From an uncultured Acidobacteriaceae bacterium (GTDB lineage Bacteria; Acidobacteriota; Terriglobia; Terriglobales; Acidobacteriaceae), in the NCBI GenBank assembly GCA_963803615.1, contig CAWDNI010000007.1, forward strand, positions 23,445 to 87,444: a stretch of DNA of 64,000 nucleotides. The letters are read 5' to 3'. Below are positions 926 through 57,736 of this stretch, in pieces. The notes beneath the pieces are model-generated. The model saw only the letters and a program-made list of their open reading frames with translations, searched no databases and had not been told where the DNA came from. Each line of letters starts with the position of its first letter. Position 1 is the stretch's first letter. A program made the translations under genes and the position numbers.

Positions 926-979
926 GTAGCGGACATTACCACATCACGGTAGCTGTGAGATTGCTCTAAAATTGCCCAT

Positions 980-2207: not shown

Positions 2208-3302
2208 ATGCCACGCCCCTTCTGGTCAGGAACCATTCAGATTTCGCTTGTCGGCTTCGCGGTTGAAATCTATCCCGCGACTACCACCACCCGGCCCATT
2301 TCCTTTCATGAGCTTGACCGCAATACTTTGAGCCGGGTTCGCCGCCAGAACGTGTCAGCAGGTCCGGCGCCTCAACAAGAATCAGTAGCGCCCGAGGCTC
2401 CCGAACAAGCCCCCGACCAAGCCGAGGATATTTCGGCGAAGCACAAGACCTTGCTGCACATAGCGGCGCGAGCCGGTGATCGGGAAGCTGCTCGCGACCT
2501 GCCGGAAAATGCGGGCCAGCACGCTGTGGAGAAGGCTGACATCGTCAAAGGCTACGAATACCAGAAAGGGAAATACGCGATCGTTGAGCCGGCAGAGTTA
2601 AAAAACCTGCGCCTTGCCGGCAGAAAGACGATCGAAATCTCACAATTTTCAAAAGCAGCCGAGATCAATCCCGCCCTGTACGACAAGCCGTACTTCGTGC
2701 TGCCTAAGGCTGGTCCACAGGCAACAGCGTTTGCCGTCGTTCGGCAAAGCATGATCGACAGCAGCATGGTCGGAATTGGCGAAATCGTCTTCAGCGGACG
2801 GCAACATCTGATGGCTCTCGCGCCCCCTCACGATCCGGACCAACCCGGCATGATGCTCTATACCCTGCGCTTTGCCACGGAACTCCGCGACCCGCATGAC
2901 TACTCGGAAGGTATGGAAACCATTCAAGCCGACCCGGCGCAGCTCGGCTTGGCAAAGCAATTGATCGATGCCTACACGCAGCCTTTTGAGCTCGGCAAAT
3001 TCAAGGATCATTACGAGGATGCGCTTCGCGAGCTGGTAGAGGCAAAGATCAACCACTTGCCCCCACCCGCGGCTGAGCCCGAAACGAAACGCGGCCAGGT
3101 CATCGATCTAATGGAAGCACTGCGCCGGAGCCTTGCCCAGCGCAACCTCCCCGAAGCTGTCGCTGACAGTGCACAGCCGGCAGCCGAAACTGCAGTCAAC
3201 GATACACCGCCGAAGAAGCCATCTAGAACGAGCGCCGCGAGAGCCAAAACTGCTGGAGCAACAACCCGGGGCGCATCAGCAAAGAAATCCAAATCCGCTT
3301 AG
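2208..3302 (+). CDS. ku: Ku family DNA end-binding protein (NHEJ)
   Basis: ATG at 2208 is preceded by gaaaggag. N-terminus PFWSGTIQISLVGFAVEIYPA matches the Ku core (W.G.isFGLV.iPV). DIVKGYEY and DKPYFVLP motifs are present, with a Lys/Ala-rich basic tail. The ORF-track start at 1989 is an upstream extension. Confidence 0.85.
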   Translation: MPRPFWSGTIQISLVGFAVEIYPATTTTRPISFHELDRNTLSRVRRQNVSAGPAPQQESVAPEAPEQAPDQAEDISAKHKTLLHIAARAGDREAARDLPENAGQHAVEKADIVKGYEYQKGKYAIVEPAELKNLRLAGRKTIEISQFSKAAEINPALYDKPYFVLPKAGPQATAFAVVRQSMIDSSMVGIGEIVFSGRQHLMALAPPHDPDQPGMMLYTLRFATELRDPHDYSEGMETIQADPAQLGLAKQLIDAYTQPFELGKFKDHYEDALRELVEAKINHLPPPAAEPETKRGQVIDLMEALRRSLAQRNLPEAVADSAQPAAETAVNDTPPKKPSRTSAARAKTAGATTRGASAKKSKSA

Positions 3303-4586
3303 ATCAAGGCCATCAAAGCATTTTCCTGATACCGTGGTGACGCAAGATTATGTGTAGCCATTTAGGAATGGCTGCGTCAGGAGCTGTTTCTCCCTCTGGA
3401 CCATCAGGAAAAATGTTCTAGGCAGGTCCAAATGGAATTGATTGGCAGGGATGGTGTTTCAGAGCTGGCTGGGGAAGTCATTGGGATTGGAAGCAAAAGA
3501 GCCTGTTGAAAGAAACAGTCTCCAAAAGAAAGAACGGTGACACCGGCTTTCTGCCGATTGAATCCTCCCCCGAGAATCAATCCGCAGCTAGCAAGAATCA
3601 CCGCTTGATTGCAAGAATACCGACTTCCTGGTCTTAAGCCACAGTTTCTAAGTAACAATCGCTTACACAATAGTACCGTGTACGATGTTACCTAGGCCTA
3701 AGAGGCTGGGTTTTGCGTCCAGGCTCGGCAGTTCTCTCAATTAGAGAGAAGATTAGCAATCATCAAAGAGAAAGACTGACAAAAATCAGACCTTGCTGAA
3801 CAGTCCTGGTCCATAGTAGATACAAGAGCCTATTTTTACACTGTTCCATAACTGGCTGTTCCATAACTGGCCCTCATCCGATTGTTTCCAACACATAAAA
3901 ACCGGAAGTGTTTCGAAAGCGACGTAGAAAGACTGCAACTATAGCAAGTCGAGCAGTTTTTCAATGAGCTGCGGGTATCCGGAAGAGGAAATCACCGCAT
4001 CGACTCCATTGCGAAACTGAACCAGTCCGACCCCTCTTTGGTAGTCCATCGTAAGACTTACGATTCGCTCCATGCTGACCGCGCGAGCAGCGTCAAGCGT
4101 TATTTCGAGCGATGCCTTTGGTTCGCGGTGATTCTGCGTGGTCCACCTCAATGAATCCCTCCCCCGAAGAATCAGATCAGCAGTCCAACAGAACCACCGC
4201 TGTCGAGAAGCATATCCGTTAGACGCTGTTTGACTACAACTATTGGGTAACAAACGGCGGCATAAAAGTACTCGGGCAGGGTAATGGAGCCGCCGGTTAT
4301 CGCAGTGTCGACAGGAGTTCATTTCAGGAGAATGCGCGGCGGGATCCTCCGCTCTTGCACAGACAATCGGGCAACCTTTACTATTCTTTACGGTCCGAAA
4401 AGACTTCCAGTCACATGATCGAAACTGCTGAACGTGTGGACGCTCTGGCTCGGAATCGGCCTTTGCAGCGCTGGCCACCCCGAAAAAACATGAGAACCAG
4501 ACTCTCCGGTTTAAGAGGTCATCAAAAGCAAACATTTGCCCTCCAACCCGCGTTGGAGGCCGGCATACCAGGTGACGGCTGAGTTT

Positions 4587-14867: not shown

Positions 14868-16040
14868 ATGCACCCATCGGAGCCAAATAGTGACGCGATG
14901 GCGCCGCTTACCTCGCTGACCGAGGAAGAGCAGCTCATGCGCGATGCAGTGCGGAGGTTTGCGCAAAAGGAGATTGCTCCTCTGGTTCGTGGCATGGACG
15001 ACGCGCAAAAACTCCATCCTGAAATCCTGCGCGGGCTTTTTGCTATGGGCCTGATGGGGATCGAGGTTCCTGTCGACTTCGGAGGAGCCGGCGCTTCCTT
15101 CTTCAGCTCCATAGTCGCCATCGAAGAGATCTCGCGAATCGACCCCGCCGTGGCTGTACTAGTCGATGTGCAGAATACTCTGATCGTCAACGCATTGTTG
15201 CGCTGGGGATCAGCCGATCAGCAGAGCCGTTACCTGCCGCGGGTTGCATCGAACACCGTCTGCTCGTATGCGTTGAGCGAAGCCGGATCCGGCTCAGACG
15301 CCTTCGCGCTGGCTACGCGGGCCAGGGCCGAAGGTCAAGGCTTCGTTCTGACCGGGCGCAAGTTGTGGATCTCAAATGCGGCGGAGGCGGATCTTTTTAT
15401 CATCTTTGCGACCATCGATCCGCAGGCCGGCTACAAAGGGATTACCGCGTTTCTGGTGGAACGGGGCATCGACGGCTTCAGCGTTGGGAAAAAAGAAGAC
15501 AAGCTGGGGATTCGCGCCTCCTCCACCTGCGAATTGCTGCTCGACGGATGCCGCGTGCCTGGTGAGAATGTTCTGGGCGAAGTAGGCAAAGGCTACAAGA
15601 TCGCAATCCAGACGCTCAATGAAGGACGAATCGGCATCGCCGCTCAGATGCTTGGATTGGCGGAAGGAGCCTGGTCGCTGGCGCTCAAATATAGCGGCGA
15701 GAGAAAGCAGTTTGGCAAAGTGATCTCGGATTTTCAGGCAGTGCAGTTCTCGCTCGCCCGCATGGCTACAGAGATCGAGGCGGCACGGCTGCTGGTCTAC
15801 AACGCCGCACGATTGAAACAAGCGGGCCAGCCGTTCGTCAAAGAAGCCGCCATGGCCAAGTACTTTGCCTCAACCATAGCCGAGCAAGTAGCCAGCGAGT
15901 CGTTGGAGATCTTCGGCGGTTCCGGCTTCGTCAAAGATTCTCCCATCGAAAAGTTTTATCGCGACGCCAAGATTGGCAAGATTTACGAAGGTACGTCAAA
16001 TATGCAGCTCGCGACGATCGCAAAGCAGCTTCTGGCTTAG
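14868..16040 (+). CDS. acyl-CoA dehydrogenase
   Basis: [23 protein letters not shown]-terminus and [18 protein letters not shown]-terminus. ATG at 14868 follows ggag; ATG at 14898 is an alternative start. Confidence 0.9.
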
Positions 16041-16149: not shown

Positions 16150-16266
16150 TAGAGCATTTTAGGTTTCGGTGTAGACGAGAAAACCCCTTCCGATGCGGCC
16201 GTTCCATCGAAGAACGGCCGCTCATAGCTGAGATAACCAGTTCACAGTAAAACCTAAAATGCTTTA
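16150..16266 (+). repeat. palindromic intergenic element, copy A (subfamily 1)
   Basis: TIR TAGAGCATTTTAGGTTT / AAACCTAAAATGCTTTA. Inner GGTGTA and ACAGTA boxes. Central hairpin GGCCGTTC-CATCGAA-GAACGGCC. Lies between convergent genes. Confidence 0.85.
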
Positions 16267-16278
16267 AAAGCCGGAATG

Positions 16279-17901
16279 TTACCAGCGAGTGACGGTTAGA
16301 TTATCCAAGTACACCGTGGGCGACCCGCTTGAGCCAAGCCCATCGACCTGGAAGTTGGTCAACAGGACCGGGCCCCATCCAAGAGCAAAGGCCGATGGAA
16401 CCGTGGCCTCTATATTCTCCTGCTGGCCGTCGAGCGACACAGAGTGATATGTAACATTGCCATTGCCGTCGCGGGAGTAGTACACCTGCACGCGATGCCA
16501 GGCGTTGGCGCTCCAATCACGGGGATTGCAATATGCGCCGGAGTGCACCCACTGGTCGCTGGGGTTCGCAGGGCTGCCCCCGTTTTTGGTGTAATCCCAT
16601 GTGCTTGAATAGCCGTCGCACTGGAATCCATAAATCACCGTCTGGCCGTTAGACATGGTCTGATTCATGTCCATTTCCAAATTGGCTATTTGACTCGAAG
16701 AATTAGTAAAGTATACCGACGCGTCGTAATAGAAGTTAGTAGATGCAGTGTCATCTCCGAAGGACACATGGTAAAGCTCACCGCCCGAGTTTGAGAATTG
16801 AGTCGCAAAATCGCGCGCCTGGCCGCTCAACGACGGCGAGTTGACGATGCTCATAGTTCCACTGGCGCTTCCGCTTCCCGTGCTGGCATCGAAGTTCGCC
16901 TGCCAGTTACTCATCGCCTGAATACTGCTCACGCTGACCGCCCCCGATGGAACCATCGAAGTGGTCGCCGCACTGGTACCCGATGCTGTAATTGCGAGAT
17001 CGGTGCCGCATGCGGCTCCACCGTTGCCCCAGGCTTTGACATGTAGCGTATGTGCGCCGGCCGTGGCGGAAATGCTGGCCTCTAGGGAAGTCTCATTAAA
17101 AGTGCTGGTATTCGTGCTGTTGTCGAGCGAATAGCCCATGGCGCTCACCGGCTGAGACGAACAGGATGCCGCACTCGCGGAAAGAGTGAACGGCGACGAA
17201 ACGGTGGCTCCGTTGTAAGGACTACTGACAGTGATTCCACTCGAAGTAACAACGCCGCTAGTCGCGGCTGCGGTGATGGCGACATCGCTGTCGCATGATG
17301 CCCCGCCGTTGCCCCACGCTTTCACATGCAGCGTGTGCGCGCCGGCAGACGTCGTGACCGTGGCGCCCACCGACGTACCGTTCACAACGGTGGTATTCGT
17401 GCTGCTGTCCAGAGAATATCCCATAGCGCTCACCGGCTGAGACGAGCAACTCGCAGCGCCGGCAACCAAGCTGAATGACGTCCCTACTACGGCGCCATTG
17501 GAAGGGCTACTTACACTGATTCCATTCGACGCTCCGGAAGTTGCCGCCGAGTTAGTTGAAGGCGCAGTGGCAGCAGCAGCGGTGATGGTGATGGCGGCGT
17601 CCGTGTCGCATGCCGCGCCCTGATTTCCCCATGCCTTGACATGCAGCGTGTGCGCGCCAGTAGACGCCGGGATCTGGGCACTTATGGATGTACTGGGAAC
17701 GATAGTAGTGTTGGTGCTGTTATCGAGCGAATAGCCCATGGAACTAACAGGCTGCGACGAGCAGGATGTAGCGCTCGCAGAGAGAGTAAATGGTGAGGAC
17801 AGTACAGCACCGTTGCCGGGAGTGCTGACGTTTACGCTTGCTAATGCCGTGGTTGCGAGCGCGAGGAAGAACAGGAGAACGACGGACGATGTCCTATTCA
17901 T
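16279..17901 (-). CDS. secreted protein with three Ig-like tandem repeats and a C-terminal beta-sandwich-like domain
   Basis: Signal peptide MNRTSSVVLLFFLALATTALA. Three ~83-aa repeats ending AGAHTLHVKAWGN.GA.C. Ser/Thr-rich linkers. Confidence 0.75.
   Translation of the reverse strand: MNRTSSVVLLFFLALATTALASVNVSTPGNGAVLSSPFTLSASATSCSSQPVSSMGYSLDNSTNTTIVPSTSISAQIPASTGAHTLHVKAWGNQGAACDTDAAITITAAAATAPSTNSAATSGASNGISVSSPSNGAVVGTSFSLVAGAASCSSQPVSAMGYSLDSSTNTTVVNGTSVGATVTTSAGAHTLHVKAWGNGGASCDSDVAITAAATSGVVTSSGITVSSPYNGATVSSPFTLSASAASCSSQPVSAMGYSLDNSTNTSTFNETSLEASISATAGAHTLHVKAWGNGGAACGTDLAITASGTSAATTSMVPSGAVSVSSIQAMSNWQANFDASTGSGSASGTMSIVNSPSLSGQARDFATQFSNSGGELYHVSFGDDTASTNFYYDASVYFTNSSSQIANLEMDMNQTMSNGQTVIYGFQCDGYSSTWDYTKNGGSPANPSDQWVHSGAYCNPRDWSANAWHRVQVYYSRDGNGNVTYHSVSLDGQQENIEATVPSAFALGWGPVLLTNFQVDGLGSSGSPTVYLDNLTVTRW
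16984..17835 (-). repeat. three tandem ~285-315-nt coding repeats inside the secreted-protein gene
   Basis: Protein residues 23-106, 128-210 and 223-306 are clearly homologous (SP.NGA.V.S.F.L.A.A.SCSSQPVS.MGYSLD.STNT). Confidence 0.85.
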
Positions 17902-18795: not shown

Positions 18796-19540
18796 TCACA
18801 CTGTTATTGCTTTACCAACCGAAGCCTGACTTCGTGTATTGCCTGAGCTGGTGGTTTTTCCGCTCCCAGATAATTTCTCCATTGGAAGATCCGGGTAGGT
18901 CCAAAAATTGAGGACACTCAATAGCACACGACTATCGGATAAGGGACATGCTCTGACGGCAACGTCGGCAAGTGCCTCGACGCGAGCGCAAACGTTTTTG
19001 CCGGCCAACATGCATGACGCTTGCCACACGTGCTCCTCAGGACGGAAATCGTTAGTGGCAGATAACTGCGCCCCATCCTTGCCAAAAAGGAAAAAGTTCC
19101 CCATATCCTGCGACCAAGGCCAGGTCGGCGCCTTACCATACTGTTGAGCTGAGTGAGCAGACATTCTGAGAGCCGTTCCCTTCGGTCGTCCGATATGGTC
19201 CTCCGGGTAAACTGACCATAACGCTCTCCGCTCCCACGTTAGTCTATCGACATTCTTTGGAAGCAAATAGGCCAGGCCTATCTTAGGCGCCTTGGGAGGA
19301 TTGGCTGAGGTTCGATAGCGGGTGATGATGAGCCCGCTGCCGTCAATCTCCAGGTCGAGATCAAGCTTGATCGTATCTATTCCTCCGTATTCACCCGAGG
19401 AACGAATAGTCACAATATAACTCGGGAGGCACCGCCCGGCCATGCCAATACCTGACTTCGACTGGTGATCGTCTGTGGCGTGGTCGCCGGCGCTCCAGCG
19501 GTCGCAGGTGATCCCGCCGAGATCGATGTTCCAGGAAGAG
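18796..19540 (-). pseudogene. C-terminal fragment of a GH2 beta-galactosidase (domain 5 / Bgal_small_N-like)
   Basis: LEIDGSGLIITRYRTSANPPKAPKIGLAYLLPKNVDRLTWERRALWSVYPEDH parallels LacZ YRIDGSGQMAITVDV..PARIGLNCQL..VERVNWLGLGPQENYPDR. There is no N-terminal catalytic part. The upstream sequence is the TonB receptor. Confidence 0.5.
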
Positions 19541-22500
19541 ATTCGCGAAGGCGCAAGGGTTATACCAGTTGGTCTTGTTCTTGGTGCGCGGCGCACACGA
19601 AACGCCGGGATTGTTCGCGCTATTTGCCGCACCCCCGGCGGCGAACGGATCGCCCACCAAAATAGCGCGCGCCGATCCGCCTACGGCAGTTGCGATATTT
19701 GGAGAGACCGTGATGGGCGGCCCGGATTGATCGACAAAGGTCAGGCTCGTCATCCAACCTCTGGCGATGAGGTTCGGTATGCCTTTCCGGTTCAGGTAGG
19801 CGCGCCCGGTTCCAAATGGAAGCTCGTACAATCCGTTGAAGGTCACTCGGTTGCGCACATCGAAGGCCGAGTTGCTGTAATCGTAGCTAATGGGCAACAA
19901 ATTGGTGCTGCGAAACCCTCCATCCGCGTTGGAGCCAAATGGATCGGGAGCATCATCCAGCGAATGCGCCCAGGTATACGTGGCGAGAAAGCTTAAGCCA
20001 TTGGAAAACCGCTTTTCCACCGTAGTCTGCAGCGAGTTATAGTCGCTCATTGCATTCGGAGAAGAGAAAGTAGCTCCCGCGAAGTCCGGGAACGGCTGAT
20101 AAGACTGCGCGCTCAGCGCGGGATTGATGAGTGCTTTGGAACCATTAGGATTGGTGATCACCACTATATGCCGGGCGGAGCTTCCAACGTAGCTGATCTG
20201 GCCGTGGGATTGCTCGAAAATGAATGCGCAAAGGCCAGGTTGTAATCCATTGAATATTCTGTTTTGGGTGCGTTGGAGATACCGGTCAACCCGGGTGTGG
20301 AGGGAAAGTTCTCTAACCCACAGCCAGCGCTTCGGAAAATCCTCTTTCCAGTGTGATCCCATTGGAGACACAGTTATTGGGAAAGCAGTTGGATGCGGGG
20401 AACGTATCCGTATACTCGAAGGGATAATTGTTCGCTATGTTTGGACTGAAGCCGATATTCTCCAGGCCTCCGTAGAACATTCCCCAACCTCCGCGAATAA
20501 CGGTTGCAGGATCGAGCTGATAGGCGAATCCCAGACGCGGCGCAAAGTTTGTTTTCTGGTTTTCGACCATGCGCGGATTATTGATGTATTGGAGAGCGAT
20601 GTTGTCCTTTGTCAATAATGCAGTGAACCACGGAGCGATGAACACTCCTTTACTCTGGACGGGTATCTGATAAGCACCCGATCCGGTCGCTATGCCGAGA
20701 GCGCCTGTTGTAAAGAAATTTGCCTTCTGTCCGTTCATTTCCTTATAAGGCTGAAGGTAGTCGTAGCGAACACCCAGGTTGAGGGTAAGTCGAGGAGTCA
20801 CTCTCCAGTCATCTTGCGCATATCCGGAACGGTACCATCGCTCATCGTTGGCTTTGATTATGGGCGAGATGTTGGAAGCGTTGTTTTGGCCTGCCAGAAG
20901 ATCGGCGACACCATAGCCGGTAAAGCTTGCGCCGAGATTGCTGGTATATAAGCCGCTGAAACTGTAGGTGCCGTGCGAGTAAGGCGGCTGCAACGTCTGG
21001 TATCGGAGACTCATAAGTTGAATGCCGAACTTCAGCGAATGATTCCCCGCGATCTTGGTTACATTATCGAGAATCTGATAAGCGTTTTGGTGTTCCAAAA
21101 TCGGGTTATAAGCAGGCGAACCCGTAGTGGTGACGCCGTTGGCCTCGCCCACTCCGGCGCCCTCGGCGCCGCTGATAAAGAAGGTAGGCAGGCCGCCATT
21201 ATCCGGGTACTGCGGACCGAATTGAGTTCCCCCTATGCCGATATTCGCTGCGATATTTGTCTGGTAATTTTCCTGGAGAAATCCGAAAAAACCGTAGCTG
21301 TAGCCGAATCTGAACTCATTGATAAGGTTCGAGCTAAAGGAATGCGTCTCGCTTCCTGCGAAATTCTCCGTCCGGTTGATGATTGTTCCGTTGTTGTAGG
21401 CTCTGCCATCGAGTATCGGACCCAGGGGCCCAGGTATATGTCCGGGGGCGTGCAGGTAACTGAATCTCCCAAACATCTGATCCTTGGCGCTGGGGTTATA
21501 GTCCATCCGCGTGTCCCACTGCCAGGTATTGCTCGACGAATTGAGAGTAGTCACATAATTGTTGTAGGTACGCCCATTGTTCGTATTCGGCTGGGGATAG
21601 AGATTAATCAGCGTTTTTGCGACAGGATCAATTTGACTTGCACAGAAGACATTCTGTTGTCCGTTGCATTGCAAAAGCGCAGTGCCGCCTGAATTTGGCT
21701 GATAAAGAGTTATGGGTTTATTTGCACCGGTAAGGCTGGGATTCAGCAATTCGGAAAAGTTTCCTTGGCGCATCAGAGGAGTGGGCACGCTTAGAGTGCT
21801 TGTTTGACCATAGACGATCCGGTTTGCCTCGGCATCGCCGAAGAAGAACAATTTATTGCGGACGATGGGAAGGCCAAGCGTGGCGCCGAATTGGTTCTCG
21901 TGATAAGTCGGGATGGTAAGCGCGTTCCAGTCCTTCGCATCCAGGTCGTTGTTGCGGAAATACTCCCAAAGATCTCCATGAATCTGGTTGGTGCCGGATT
22001 TGATGCTGGCGTTGATTACGGCGCCGGCGGAGTGTCCAAACTCGGCCCCGTAGTTGCTGGTCTCCACCTTGAATTCAGCCAATGCATCCGGCGGCGGCCG
22101 GACCACAAAGCTTGCGCCATTCAGAAAATCCGCGCTGTTTTCATTGTTGTCGACGCCGTCCATGATGAAATCATTCTGCTCTGCCACCTGGCCATTGGCC
22201 TCGAAATCGCCTGAGCCGCCTCCCCTAGACCCGACTGAAGGGTCGGCCCCGGCGGTGAGCTGTGCAATATAGACCCAATTGCGCCCATTGAGAGGCGTGT
22301 CGTTGATGGTACGCGTGCTCAGCACCTGGCCCACAGCGCCCTGTTGGGTCTGCAATAGCGGCGGAGCGCTGGAAACCGTGACAGTCTGGCTCACCACCCC
22401 AGGTTGCAGAACCAGGACGACGTTAAGACGCTCCTGAACATCTACGTGCACGTTCTGCTGAGAAGTTGTTTGGAAGCCGGGAGCAGTTGCGCTCACCGTG

Positions 22501-22707
22501 AAGTTGCCGATCTTGATCGGAGAGAAATTGTAAATACCGTTCGAATCCGCTTTCGTCTTCAAGACCAGGCCGGTATCCGTACTGGTGAGCGCCCTGATCC
22601 TGTTGCGCCACGGCGCGGTAAGCGGGCAGCAGCGCGCAACAAAAACCAACTACCAGGGAGCAGATGCAGCTCTTGCGTCTTTTCAGGTGTCTCACTCCGG
22701 CGGCCAT
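19541..22707 (-). pseudogene. TonB-dependent receptor with CarboxypepD_reg domain, multiply disrupted and 3'-truncated
   Basis: The signal peptide (MAAGVRHLKRRKSCICSLVVGFCCALLPAYRAVAQ, ATG 22707 after ggaagaggaaagag) is in a different frame from the 778-aa body (TINDTPLNGRNW plug). The barrel continues in two more frames after 20313 and about 20200. The last ~100 aa are missing after NWYNPCAFAN. Confidence 0.75.
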
Positions 22708-24821: not shown

Positions 24822-24995
24822 CTTGAATGCTCCCGGTTATCGTTCTGATTCGCTTTGAACTTTCTGAACGCAAGATTCAGCTTACGGCAGAAGCAGGATA
24901 GATATATCCCAAGCCGCTGCCATCAACGGCCTTTTTCCTCAAGAAAAAGACCACTTTGTGGAATTTATCGAAGCGAACCTTTCCTGTTTCTGCCC

Positions 24996-25817
24996 TTAGC
25001 CCCCCAAATCGACTAGTTCCACTTTGTCAATCGGTTCTCCTAAAAAACGAGCGCCCAAATTGCGGAACTTAGCTACCGAATCGGTCGCGAAAAAGCGGAG
25101 ACTTCGCGCGGGATTCGCGGCCGCACAGAGGGCATCATTGCCGAGCGTTCCCGCTACTCGCTCCGCGATGGCATTGGCCGAATCGATCACGCGCATGCCG
25201 GCCGGCAGGGCGGCTTCGATGGGCGCGCGCAGAAGCGGATAATGAGTGCAGCCCAGCACCAGCGTGTCCGGCGCCATTTTTTCTTGCTCCGCCTGGGCAA
25301 GCAGTTCCGAAAGATAGATCCGCACGACTTCAGCGGTGACCGGGTGGGTAACCCATCCCTCCTCCACCAAGGGCACCAGGAGAGGGCAGGCTTTCTCCAA
25401 CGTATGTAGCCCGCATCTCCGGCCCGCCTCCGCATACGCATGGCTGCCCACAGTAGCGTCAGTTCCGATTACCAGGATGTCTCCGGACCGGGAACGGCCG
25501 CGGGCCTCGTCGACCCCGGCCTCGATGACGCCTAAAACCGGGAGCGCCGTGGAGCGGCGAATGTCGTCAAGCGCAAGCGCGCTTGCCGTATTGCACGCGA
25601 TGACCAGGAAGCCGGCATCCTGTTCGATCAGAAAGCGCGTGCTGGAGAGTGCATAGCGGGCGATGGTTGCCTGGGATTTCGACCCGTAGGGCAGCCTCGC
25701 TGTGTCGCCGATATAGACAAAATCCGCTCCCGGAAGCACCTGGAGCAAAGCCCGCAAAACGGTCAGGCCGCCAAAGCCGGAATCGAATACACCAATTTTG
25801 ACCTCCGCTCTGCTCAT
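24996..25817 (-). CDS. murI: glutamate racemase
   Basis: VFDSGFGGLTV, ACNTAS and GCTHYPLL motifs. Confidence 0.95.
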   Translation of the reverse strand: MSRAEVKIGVFDSGFGGLTVLRALLQVLPGADFVYIGDTARLPYGSKSQATIARYALSSTRFLIEQDAGFLVIACNTASALALDDIRRSTALPVLGVIEAGVDEARGRSRSGDILVIGTDATVGSHAYAEAGRRCGLHTLEKACPLLVPLVEEGWVTHPVTAEVVRIYLSELLAQAEQEKMAPDTLVLGCTHYPLLRAPIEAALPAGMRVIDSANAIAERVAGTLGNDALCAAANPARSLRFFATDSVAKFRNLGARFLGEPIDKVELVDLGG

Positions 25818-43748: not shown

Positions 43749-43866
43749 TATAGCGTTTTCACAATTGGTGTATCCCAATAAACTACTCTCGACGCAGGCG
43801 TTCCATCAAAGAACGCCTGCACATAGCCAACTCTCACCAGGACACAGTAATTGTGAAAACGCTACA
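43749..43866 (+). repeat. palindromic intergenic element, copy B (subfamily 2)
   Basis: TIR TA-TAGCGTTTTCACAATT / AATTGTGAAAACGCTA-CA. GGTGTA and ACAGTA boxes. Central hairpin AGGCGTTC-CATCAAA-GAACGCCT. Confidence 0.85.
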
Positions 43867-44913
43867 ATGACAGAAAACTACCGTATCGCGATCGTAGGAG
43901 CCGCTTCCCTCCGCGGCAAAGAACTCAATGAGGCTCTGACCGAGTCGAGCTTCGCCGCTTCGGAATTTGCGCTCATGGACGACCAGGAAGCGCTCGGACA
44001 GCTCGAAGCGGTCGGTGAAGAAGTAACCTTCATTCAGCAGATAACCCCCAGTTCATTCGAGCGCATCGATTTCGCTTTCTTCGCCGGACATCCGAAGGTT
44101 ACGCGGATGCACTGGCAAACCGCCATGCGTGCGGGCGCCAGCATTATCGATCTCTCCTACGCGCTGGAAAGAGAGGCAGGCGTGCTGGTGCGGGCGCCTT
44201 GGATCGGCGAAAGGGGAAGCGATGGCGCGCCGCTCGCGCCGCCGGATTTGCACACGCCGGCGATCATTCCCGCGCATCCCGCCGCGGTAACTCTCGCCCT
44301 ATTGCTGCAACGCCTGCAGAGCATCGGAGCCATTCGCAACGTATCGGTTACCATTCTTGAGCCTTCCTCCGAGCATGGACGCGCGGCCATGGACGAACTG
44401 CATCAGCAGACCGTATCGCTGCTTTCATTCCAGAGTATTCCCAAAAATATTTATGACATCCAAATAGCCTTCAATGCGATTGTGGCAAGCGGCGAGGCGG
44501 CGAAGGTCAATCTGCAGGAGATTGAATCGCGTGTGCGCCGCCACTATGCTCTGCTTTCCGGCGGACGCCTGCCGCAGATCTCGTTACAGTTGATTCATAT
44601 TCCGGTTTTTCACGGGCACAACTTCTCCATTGCCGTCGAGTTCGAGCAGCCGGTTACGCTGGAACATGTGGAGGCCGCGCTTTCCGGGGCGCACGTAGAG
44701 ATCGTTCTGGGCGACGCGGACGCGCCCAGCAATCTTACCGCCGCCGGCCAGGAAGATATTCTGGTTCGCGTTCGTTCAGGTGAAGAAGGCAGCGCGCCCT
44801 CGCGCCGTCTGTGGCTATGGGCCTCGATCGACAACCTCAAAGTCTGCGCTTACAACGCAGTCGAGTGCGCTCAGGAATTGCGGAAACTGAGGCCGCATGG
44901 CACGGTCCAATAA
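43867..44913 (+). CDS. aspartate-semialdehyde dehydrogenase family protein lacking the active-site cysteine
   Basis: Rossmann RIAIVGAASLRGKEL, IAFNAI, IPVFHGHNFSIAVEF and DNLKVCAYNAVECAQ align with Asd. The NPNCST position reads PAHPAAV. Confidence 0.75.
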   Translation: MTENYRIAIVGAASLRGKELNEALTESSFAASEFALMDDQEALGQLEAVGEEVTFIQQITPSSFERIDFAFFAGHPKVTRMHWQTAMRAGASIIDLSYALEREAGVLVRAPWIGERGSDGAPLAPPDLHTPAIIPAHPAAVTLALLLQRLQSIGAIRNVSVTILEPSSEHGRAAMDELHQQTVSLLSFQSIPKNIYDIQIAFNAIVASGEAAKVNLQEIESRVRRHYALLSGGRLPQISLQLIHIPVFHGHNFSIAVEFEQPVTLEHVEAALSGAHVEIVLGDADAPSNLTAAGQEDILVRVRSGEEGSAPSRRLWLWASIDNLKVCAYNAVECAQELRKLRPHGTVQ

Positions 44914-48652: not shown

Positions 48653-48767
48653 TAGAACTGGTCTCATAGATGGATTTTGAGGCTTCGGTCGAAAGCATGA
48701 GCCCGCTTCGGTGGCGGGTCTCATCCACAACGTTGGCGAGGGAGTTGGGTTTATGAGACCAGTTCTA
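48653..48767 (-). repeat. 115-nt TA-bounded palindromic element at the purH 3' end
   Basis: Perfect 16-bp inverted repeat TAGAACTGGTCTCATA (48653-48668) / TATGAGACCAGTTCTA (48752-48767). A central 8-bp stem / 7-nt loop hairpin and a second UUCG-type hairpin lie inside. The right arm contains the purH stop codon. Confidence 0.7.
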
Positions 48768-50431: not shown

Positions 50432-51310
50432 ATGGATTGGAAATCGCGAGGGGACCGGCCGGTGCTCGCCCAGCCGGAGATTCTGCCGCCGGCAGGGCGA
50501 GACGACCCTCGCAACTATCCCGGAGAGGACCCCAGGCGATTTGACCTGCCTCCGCCTGGTCCCAGCAGACGCCGGAGCGTTGCCCGCTGGGCCACGGCGC
50601 CGGCCACCTATACGTTGGTAGCGATCAACTGCCTGGTCTATCTGGGGATGATCCTTCAGGGCGTCTCCGCCAGGAACCCCACCATTGCCGATCTTCTCCG
50701 CTGGGGCGCAAACTCCGGCCCTTACGTACTCATAGGCCATCAGTGGTGGCGGCTGGTCACCGCCGCATTCGTTCACGCGGGACCCCTGCACATCGCCACC
50801 AATATGTGGTGTCTTTGGAATTTGGGACTGCTTGGCGAGCCTCTCCTTGGGGGTTTTGGAACATTCGCGGTTTATTTGTTGACGGGAGTCGCGGGAAATC
50901 TGCTGAGCGTCGCGGTCAATCCGGGTGTGCCGCACGGGCCGCCCGGAATCGTGGGCGTGGGCGCTTCCGGAGCGGTATTTGGATTGGCCGGCGTGCTGAT
51001 CGTTTTATTGAAGTCGCCATTGTTGCCGGTCCCCCCGGGGGAATTGCGGCAATTGCGGCGCAGCGTGATCTATTTCGCCATCCTGAATTTTGTATTCGGG
51101 GCTTCGAGTCTTTTCTTCTCCAATTTCATTCGCATCGACAATATGGCCCATTTGGGAGGATTTCTCTGCGGCTTGGCGGTAGGCGTGCCGCTGGTTCCCA
51201 GGATCGGCGCGCCCAGAGGCCAATTTCTCTTCCGCCAAAAACTGGCTTACGGCGGTATGCTCCTGCTGCTGCTGGTCTTCGCCTTCGGGGTTGAATCCTT
51301 CTGGCGATAG
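50432..51310 (+). CDS. rhomboid family intramembrane serine protease
   Basis: WWRLVTAAFVHAGPLHIATNM, the catalytic GASGAVFG, and AHLGGF. Confidence 0.9.
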   Translation: MDWKSRGDRPVLAQPEILPPAGRDDPRNYPGEDPRRFDLPPPGPSRRRSVARWATAPATYTLVAINCLVYLGMILQGVSARNPTIADLLRWGANSGPYVLIGHQWWRLVTAAFVHAGPLHIATNMWCLWNLGLLGEPLLGGFGTFAVYLLTGVAGNLLSVAVNPGVPHGPPGIVGVGASGAVFGLAGVLIVLLKSPLLPVPPGELRQLRRSVIYFAILNFVFGASSLFFSNFIRIDNMAHLGGFLCGLAVGVPLVPRIGAPRGQFLFRQKLAYGGMLLLLLVFAFGVESFWR

Positions 51311-51424
51311 AGCATTTTAGCTTTTGGTGTATGCGCGGGAAGCATTGCCCAGATGGCCGTTCCATCGGAGAACGGCCACACACAGTTGCCCTTGCCACAT
51401 CACGGTAAAAGCTAAAATGCTCTA
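51308..51424 (+). repeat. palindromic intergenic element, copy C (subfamily 1)
   Basis: Perfect 18-bp TIR TAGAGCATTTTAGCTTTT / AAAAGCTAAAATGCTCTA. GGTGTA and ACGGTA boxes. Central hairpin GGCCGTTC-CATCGGA-GAACGGCC. Confidence 0.85.
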
Positions 51425-57618: not shown

Positions 57619-57736
57619 TATAGCGTTTTCACAATTACAGTGTCCTGGTGAGAGTTGGCTATGTGCAGGCGTTCTTTGATGGAACGCCTGCGTGGACTGT
57701 TGTTTCTTGGGATACACCGATTGTGAAAACGCTATA
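57619..57736 (-). repeat. palindromic intergenic element, copy D (subfamily 2, inverted relative to B)
   Basis: TIR TATAGCGTTTTCACAAT / ATTGTGAAAACGCTATA. The core is the reverse complement of copy B, with 6 mismatches in ~83 nt by hand alignment. Confidence 0.85.

Follow-up and report, generated by a model that had tools for sequence, protein, structure and literature searches.

What is the short palindromic repeat that recurs between ordinary genes in a 64,000-nt stretch of an uncultured Acidobacteriaceae genome (the whole stretch is hereafter called the window)? The initial annotation, made from this DNA only, described four copies of about 117 bp and left two readings side by side, a family of MITEs (transposable elements of miniature size with inverted repeats) or a structured RNA/DNA element under selection for pairing. 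The results presented here favor the first. The copies are probably a non-autonomous DNA transposon, that is, a bacterial MITE family specific to one Acidobacteriaceae clade: they are dispersed in several genomes and in both orientations, related genomes carry empty sites with a single TA, the flanks follow a Y-TA-R pattern, and copies within one genome are nearly identical. The family, which has several subfamilies and is accompanied by a sister family, was previously undescribed; the kind of element is well known, and no new kind of biology is involved.

Copies in the window and their empty sites

The window contains seven elements and one fragment, about one element per 9 kb.

Copy A: 16150..16266, plus strand, 117 bp, A/C subfamily. 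Left terminal inverted repeat (TIR) 16150-16167; box GGTGTA at 16168-16173; hairpin at the center, 16195-16221 (stem of 10 bp, CATCGAA loop); box CACAGTA at 16243-16249; right TIR 16250-16266
Copy B: 43749..43866, plus strand, 118 bp, B/D subfamily
Copy C: 51308..51424, plus strand, 117 bp, A/C subfamily, perfect 18-bp TIR
Copy D: 57619..57736, minus strand (inverted), 118 bp, B/D subfamily, perfect 17-bp TIR
Copy E: 3313..3420, minus strand, about 108 bp, divergent, older member (profile hidden Markov model, nhmmer, and covariance model)
Copy G: 24883..24998, plus strand, 116 bp, divergent, older member (nhmmer and covariance model)
Solo right end: 938..968, plus strand, ACCACATCACGGTA followed by TIR GCTGTGAGATTGCTCTA, a truncated copy (profile and covariance model)
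Element F: 48653..48767, strand not assigned, 115 bp, TA-bounded, perfect 16-bp TIR TAGAACTGGTCTCATA, GC-rich central hairpin (inverted-repeat scan)

Copies A to D were found on reading exactly where, and in the orientations in which, they had been annotated. The copy number of four was too low, since the nhmmer and covariance-model searches added E, G and the solo right end and the inverted-repeat scan added F. Copies A to D share one architecture. The TIRs are 17-18 bp long and 94-100% complementary in A (94%), C and D (both 100%); the TA boundary ascribed to all four holds for these three, the right TA of copy B reading CA. On the left, a subterminal GGTGTA box occupies positions 19-24 in all four copies; its counterpart on the right, read inward, is TACTGTG, and each box keeps a fixed distance of 18 nt to its end. 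The second box described, CAC(N)GTA, is present just internal to the right TIR. The central hairpin has the 7-nt loop that had been described, on a stem of 10 bp instead of 8 bp (GCGGCCGTTC/GAACGGCCGC in A and GCAGGCGTTC/GAACGCCTGC in B/D), and the proposed loop consensus CATCNAA is broken by copy C, which has CATCGGA. Aligned together, the four copies show a mean column identity of 77%. The division into two subfamilies is supported by pairwise identities of 74% (A-C), 93% (B-D) and 65% (A-B); of the 118 positions of B and D, 8 are different, and 6 of these lie in the core, the number counted originally. The elements (105-118 bp) have no coding capacity, no frame being open for more than 39 codons, and their GC content is 45-52% compared with 56.8% for the window.

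Such a repeat could in principle be spurious, arising by chance or from metagenome assembly. The window and all related loci are metagenome-assembled, and one gene of the window looks frameshifted. The pattern GGTGTA-N70-90-CACNGTAA, however, is expected about 0.02 times per window, every copy folds with a z score of -6.6 to -10.7 on both strands, and the window holds 9 TA-bounded inverted repeats against about 1.4 in shuffled sequence, which together exclude chance. The copies also differ from one another, each lies in unique flanks, and the same family was recovered from assemblies made independently in several projects, among them palsa, Microflora Danica and FK2. The artefact explanation is thereby refuted, and we give it a negligible probability.

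Empty sites were provided by relatives whose PurH proteins are 81-83% identical to that of the window. Two of them lie on long contigs (loci L114 and L115), where the gene order from BrkB to phosphatidylserine decarboxylase is shared with the window and coding DNA is about 79-80% identical at the nucleotide level to window positions 39-53 kb. The covariance model found no copy in either of these 21.6-kb loci, and BLAST homology between the window and the relatives breaks exactly at B, F and C. The junctions read as follows.

Copy B site, empty: ...GCAGACTAATTCGC-TA-ATGACAGAC in L114; ...AAACTAGTTCTT-TA-ATGACAGAC in L115
Copy B site, filled: ...GCAGACTGATCCAC-TA-[TAGCG...114 nt...CGCTA]-CA-ATGACAGAA in the window
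Copy C site, empty: rhomboid gene end TTCTGGCGA-TAA in L114; TTCTGGCGG-TAA in L115
Copy C site, filled: TTCTGGCGA-TA-GAGC... in the window
Element F site: empty, purH end CAC-TAA-ccgg in L114; filled, CAC-TA-GAAC... in the window

The empty-site contexts are C-TA-A, A-TA-A and C-TA-A. At the B site, the one TA of the empty relative corresponds to TA...(T>C)A around a 114-nt insert, so that copy B consists of TA, the element proper (43751-43864) and CA, the latter being the second TA with its T changed to C. Among 35 full copies, C or T precedes the element in 32 and G or A follows it in 33, and TA is present at both ends in 28. These data demonstrate that the target is Y-TA-R and that the TA is duplicated on insertion. 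Further copies and empty sites, which the initial annotation had proposed to look for in related Acidobacteriota, were both found in Acidobacteriaceae metagenome-assembled genomes (MAGs).

The description of the copies as intergenic is correct with a qualification: C, F and G overlap the adjacent stop codon, and B ends 2 nt before the asd start codon. The TAG stop of the rhomboid gene (50432-51310) is formed by the first three bases of copy C, the purH stop TAG is the reverse complement of the terminal CTA of element F, and the TAA stop of an Asp/Glu racemase-family gene (24996-25817, minus strand) is the reverse complement of the terminal TTA of copy G. Elsewhere, a 3-nt overlap with a stop codon is likewise seen in at least 8 of 38 copies. 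The neighbors of copies elsewhere are convergent in 11 cases and divergent in 3; between tandem genes both orientations occur (12 versus 5, not significant). One candidate for an ancient orthologous insertion was considered and rejected: locus L020 carries a copy of another subfamily (3165-3282) that also lies 3' of the orthologous acyl-CoA dehydrogenase gene, as copy A does. Its opposite flank is unrelated and it belongs to a dispersed subfamily, which makes it an independent insertion.

All elements of the window occupy gene-poor gaps amid ordinary housekeeping DNA; the 50 open reading frames (ORFs) scanned with Pfam are ordinary housekeeping genes or matched no family. Copy A sits between convergent genes, one for an acyl-CoA dehydrogenase, with its stop at 16040, and an unknown one of 540 aa that stops at 16279, and copy D is flanked by genes for a GMC oxidoreductase and gluconate 2-dehydrogenase subunit 3. 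Copy E lies 11 nt 3' of the stop codon of a Ku-domain gene; its TIR is TAGAACATTTTTCCTGAT / ATCAGGAAAATGCTTTGA, its GGTGTA box has decayed to GGTCCA and its central hairpin is AGCCATT-CCTA-AATGGCT. The central hairpin of copy G, GGCCTTTTTCC-TCAA-GAAAAAGACC, is that of the sister subfamily represented by L035, L011 and L030. The solo right end is followed by an ATG at 980, 12 nt downstream. Element F is built like A to D around an unrelated core, scores only 13 bits with the covariance model and is a second family that shares their architecture; no further copy of it was found in the 1.17 Mb of loci searched.

Copy B lies between a CDP-alcohol phosphatidyltransferase gene and asd, 2 nt 5' of the asd ATG (43867). 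It thus places a hairpin of -48 to -63 kcal/mol just before the start codon of an essential gene, a natural test of translation initiation. Neither here nor in the relatives L114 and L115 is asd preceded by a Shine-Dalgarno sequence near its ATG. The junction between copy B and the start codon is spanned by a promoter-like match (AGGACA-18 nt-TACAAT, 43839-43868); it would start transcription inside asd and is therefore probably not functional. ORF callers run genes into the elements, as in the TTG-started ORF 43765-44913 over copy B. In L115 (MFD06092.bin.2.40), the gap between an HD-domain gene and asd holds an IS110-family transposase gene (16331-17545; DEDD_Tnp_IS110 and Transposase_20); neither the window nor L114 has it at the corresponding place.

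One further observation concerns a TonB-dependent-receptor-like gene of the outer membrane on the minus strand (18796-22649; Pfam OMP_b-brl_4), which is split into overlapping ORFs. The ORF 20313-22649 covers profile positions 2-502 and the ORF 19391-20371 positions 549-757, the result of a frameshift, a pseudogene or an assembly error; the ORF 18796-19632, without Pfam match, may be the remaining tail.

Distribution, subfamilies and recent activity

One genome per prokaryotic species was scanned with an exact pattern that required GGTGTA and CGTTCCATCNNAGAACG. At least 33 loci were found, 32 of them in Acidobacteriaceae/Acidobacteriota MAGs from peat and soil; the remaining one, on a Lachnospiraceae contig, is devoid of TIRs and looks like a chance match. 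A single MAG, MFD10064.bin.1.84, accounts for at least 19 of the 33 listed loci, 17 of which hold a complete copy. In total, the 32 listed loci, from at least 9 MAGs, contain at least 38 further copies in unrelated flanks. They fall into subfamilies whose TIRs are quite different yet still complementary (TAGAGCAAGAGCACAGAA, TAAGGCATTATCAGAGTT, TAGAGCATTTTCACTGAA and others).

The family is not widespread. In 80 metagenome contigs of more distant Acidobacteriaceae (asd 54-72% identical; 0.82 Mb in all), the covariance model gave only 4 weak matches, with a variant central hairpin, and the family is therefore considered clade-restricted. Since the best asd match among these contigs is only 72% identical, too distant for empty-site alignment, the 80 loci were used as a negative census. 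Copy D had no match in plasmids and phages (blastn, word size 11), and the core pattern none in IMG/VR viral contigs. In line with the initial annotation, which had not recognized a known Rfam family, none reached its threshold: the whole window gave no match at the gathering threshold, and in E-value mode the best matches of B and C were plant miRNA hairpins, generic look-alikes with 28 bits where 79 are required. No described MITE or REP family of Acidobacteriaceae was found in the full-text searchable literature, and a broad MITE survey names Acidobacteriae solely for phage-borne MITEs (PMC11602168).

Identity among copies exceeds that of the genes of their hosts. The 15 B-type copies of MFD10064.bin.1.84 are on average 96.6% identical, and copy D of the window matches their consensus at 98.3% of positions. 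For copy B, identity to the copy at L013 is 94.9%; L013 shares a contig with L115, where the genes are only about 79% identical to those of the window. Across genomes, B-type copies are thus 95-98% identical where genes are only about 79% identical. This near-identity above the gene level, seen at sites that are not orthologous, suggests that each genome underwent recent bursts and that species exchanged the active lineage. Dead derivatives are also seen, namely the solo end and two chimeric copies, L011 3216-3327 and L028 3173-3289. In both chimeras the arms come from different subfamilies and the terminal stem is unpaired, which suggests recombination between elements.

A search of 1.17 Mb for inverted-repeat pairs of the terminal motif TA-N-AGC, 0.06-4 kb apart, returned a chance-like background and two other short palindromic elements. 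The first is a 271-bp sequence (L025 4357-4627) bounded by TAGAGCCTGTGATTCA / TGAATCACAGGCTCCA, which shares the TAGAGC terminus, has no similarity to the family core and is possibly another non-autonomous element. The second, on a more distant Acidobacteriaceae metagenome contig, is a 154-bp TA-bounded palindrome (L085 8152-8305; TAAAGCAGTTCTCCAA...TTGGAGAACTGCTCTA). Its central GC-rich hairpin of about 42 bp (CCCCACGGAC...GTCCGTGGGG) recurs alone, in tandem arrays, on other contigs and is REP-like; repeats of this type are also listed at L081 1831-1953 and L105 4067-4150.

A family of this density is relevant to the annotation and assembly of soil and peat MAGs, as repeats break contigs. Its copies are usable as strain-typing markers and as a record of recent DNA exchange among uncultured Acidobacteriaceae species.

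Pairing, strand asymmetry and mode of movement

The compensatory differences between copies reported for both stems are real and exceed controls. Over 33 distinct copies, 86.8% of the cells of the full-length hairpin are paired, compared with 37-52% when partners are slid by 1-3 columns, and all shuffle controls were exceeded. The terminal helix is 92.6% paired. Changes on both sides were observed in 24 of 48 pairs overall and in 14 of the 18 terminal pairs. This is real covariation. It had been taken as a possible sign of selected pairing, and on this point the interpretation has to be narrowed: in an inverted-repeat transposon both ends must fit one transposase, so that the two TIRs should covary even where no RNA is involved. 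The covariation thus fits the MITE and the structured RNA/DNA readings alike and is, alone, no evidence for selection on RNA pairing.

IS630/Tc1-mariner elements form a prokaryotic insertion sequence (IS) family marked by strict TA duplication, often at CTAG-like targets. By analogy, the family described here is probably mobilized in trans by a DDE transposase of this type. Encoded elsewhere, such an enzyme would bind both ends of the element and move it to a TA in Y-TA-R context, leaving TA on both sides as target-site duplication. Its predicted recognition sites are the terminal TA-N-AGC, for cleavage or binding, and the subterminal GGTGTA / TACTGTG boxes. TIRs that differ between subfamilies and match within each copy could reflect co-variation of the ends to suit one enzyme, combined with successive bursts from different master copies. 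Insertions within genes are presumably purged by selection and, with TA scarce in a 57% GC genome, the survivors cluster at gene ends, several in TAA or TAG stops. Stop codons offer both a supply of TA and a harmless landing place, where a TAGAGC-type terminus rebuilds a TAG stop; such insertions illustrate how a TA-specific element reaches neutral sites in a GC-rich genome. Once inserted, the element would add a very stable hairpin (-45 to -63 kcal/mol) to transcripts crossing it, with possible side effects on mRNA stability or translation.

Several observations weigh against this interpretation or restrict it. The IS630/Tc1 assignment is drawn solely from the TA duplication and the Y-TA-R preference, that is, from knowledge of the family. 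No transposase was found among the 50 Pfam-scanned ORFs of the window, no transposase family was enriched among 114 genes around other copies (best 25 of 194 families), and no longer element with these TIRs was present in the 1.17 Mb of loci, where no pair of inverted TA-N-AGC repeats spaced by 0.7-4 kb stood out either. An exact duplication is seen at B only, where one TA reads CA, and at C and F only one junction could be aligned. Among L001-L032, the scan pattern itself dictated that GGTGTA and the hairpin be invariant, which should not be taken for conservation; in members found without this pattern (E, G, L035 and L011b), the core is seen to drift too. Finally, G·U wobble pairs number 80 on one strand and 29 on the other in 13 subfamily representatives, an asymmetry that double-strand cut-and-paste does not predict. 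Solo-TIR matches were considered as traces of an autonomous partner and proved to be ordinary or degenerate copies.

The strand asymmetry would be predicted by selection at the level of RNA or of single-stranded DNA. The better-folding strand is the complement of the A/B/C plus strand in 31 of 34 copies, with a mean of -56.2 versus -46.3 kcal/mol. In the terminal stem the wobble counts are even (7 versus 7); the surplus comes from the inner arms together with the extended central stem. At columns 29:90, 30:89 and 34:86, G·U alternates with G·C. When two invariant columns are removed and shared subfamily ancestry is allowed for, a clear bias is left mainly in two clades, those of B and L001. 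A 3x3 internal loop is conserved beside the GGTGTA/CACAGTA boxes.

These features could mean that the element is primarily a structured RNA module, a cis-regulatory hairpin or small-RNA precursor whose pairing is selected in the transcript, mobility being a means of spread or ancient. The very stable folding (z down to -10.7), the pairing excess over slid controls with its two-sided changes, the strand-biased wobble and the 95-98% identity of whole elements between genomes that differ far more in their genes are all in line with such a role, and the known MITEs Correia and ERIC do act as RNA hairpins (PMC2229807). On the other hand, orthologous sites in relatives are without copies, which are therefore dispensable for the neighboring genes. 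Between co-directional genes both orientations occur, and the commoner one puts the weaker-folding strand in the mRNA. The element itself shows no promoter or terminator signal, and a terminator role was rejected as no terminator-like site was found in it. The Rfam matches are only generic miRNA-hairpin look-alikes far under threshold, the wobble bias is reduced mainly to two clades after correction, and covariation of the two TIRs needs no RNA. We consider a primarily RNA-level function improbable.

Asymmetric folding would also suit a REPIN-like element, a single-strand DNA hairpin moved by an HUH/Y1 tyrosine transposase (RAYT or TIRYT) acting on one folded strand. One strand does form a nearly continuous hairpin through G·T wobble, on which the 3x3 internal loop is conserved and flanked by the boxes UACUGUG / UACACC. 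Y1 transposases of the IS200/IS605 type, however, insert beside a specific tetra- or pentanucleotide and do not duplicate the target, whereas the element described here has TA at both ends, symmetric Y-TA-R flanks and one TA in the empty site. A well-defined group of TIR-associated Y1 transposases is described from the genera Terriglobus, Koribacter, Acidobacterium and Granulicella (PMC3733652). No Y1_Tnp gene was found in the window or in the best 25 of 194 families of the 114 neighboring genes. The halves of the element are not palindromic REP units and the GTAG or CGTC head is absent; even in Neisseria, Correia-type elements are distinct from REPINs (bioRxiv 10.1101/2021.07.10.451892). Movement by a Y1 enzyme thus appears very improbable.

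A broader proposal is that the element is more than a selfish MITE: either it transposes as a folded single strand, with TA duplication, by a machinery that reads structure rather than TIR sequence, or it is a dispersed RNA hairpin module used by the host. The arguments offered are the continuous hairpin of one strand via G·U/G·T wobble, the 3x3 loop and the cross-species identity of 95-98% against about 79% for genes; the Acidobacteria-specific TIR-associated Y1 transposases would fit as an example of a mover for the folded-strand route. We regard this proposal as unlikely and retain the non-autonomous, TA-inserting transposon as the preferred explanation.

Comparison with known systems

MITEs of the Correia, ERIC and RUP type are known mainly from Proteobacteria and Firmicutes. 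Bacterial MITEs as a class are shorter than 200 bp, carry TIRs, end in TA, duplicate their target site and give transcripts with long stem-loops (PMC2229807). The features by which this class is recognized (PMC2229807; PMC3733652), namely small size (about 70-300 bp) without coding capacity, TIRs of about 15-30 bp, dispersed copies, and filled and empty sites with duplication, were all found here, and so was the strict TA target, often in a CTAG/NTAN context, of MITEs derived from IS630/Tc1-mariner.

Among the systems compared, REP/REPIN-RAYT elements share the dispersed extragenic hairpins of about 100 bp, the bias to gene 3' ends and the strand-asymmetric folding. They differ in that the present family has no REP dimer, no GTAG/CGTC head and no flanked RAYT gene, and that TA is duplicated; a REP/REPIN identity was rejected, as the halves are not self-palindromic, the termini are TA-N-AGC and no Y1 transposase is encoded in the window. 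Integron attC sites were rejected as well, since the copies lie 6-27 kb apart among housekeeping genes and the window has no integrase. ERIC elements (IRU, RU-1) are likewise imperfect palindromes (127 bp) with TA termini, intergenic and transcribed as a hairpin (PMC2229807). In contrast to the insertion-polymorphic copies described here, they have short contiguous 7-bp TIRs, are largely immobile and are vertically inherited. An ERIC or other enterobacterial repeat identity was rejected, as blastn with word size 11 found nothing like copy A among 5,426 E. coli genomes. The effect of the ERIC hairpin reportedly depends on orientation, according to De Gregorio et al. (2005).

RUP of Streptococcus pneumoniae is closer: it is a palindrome of about 107 bp with TA targets and stop codons in many frames (PMC2229807), and near-identical copies attest to recent bursts in both cases. 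It is also the model for mobilization in trans by an IS630-family transposase, that of IS630-Spn1 (PMC2229807). The two differ, in a comparison made by description only, in that RUP TIRs match a resident IS630-family IS and no matching IS was found here.

The closest known system is Correia (NEMIS, CREE) of Neisseria. It belongs to another phylum, its TIRs are 26 bp long instead of 17-18 bp, and the inner arms of the present elements pair mainly by G·U on one strand. Its TIR start TATAGTGGATTAA (PMC5039591) resembles TATAGCGTTTTCAC of B/D, the repeat beginning TATAGTGG... there and TATAGCG... here; compared by eye, the resemblance to the 26-bp Correia repeat TATAGTGGATTAACAAAAATCAGGACAA is confined to the first 5-7 nt (TATAG-Y-G) and does not amount to homology (PMC5039591). 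In neither system has the transposase been identified. Both families nevertheless consist of elements of the same size class (69-155 bp for Correia, 105-118 bp here) with long TIRs, TA at both ends, duplication of a TA target and transcripts that carry the whole element as a hairpin, and in both the copies are mostly intergenic, number about a hundred or more per genome and are common to several species.

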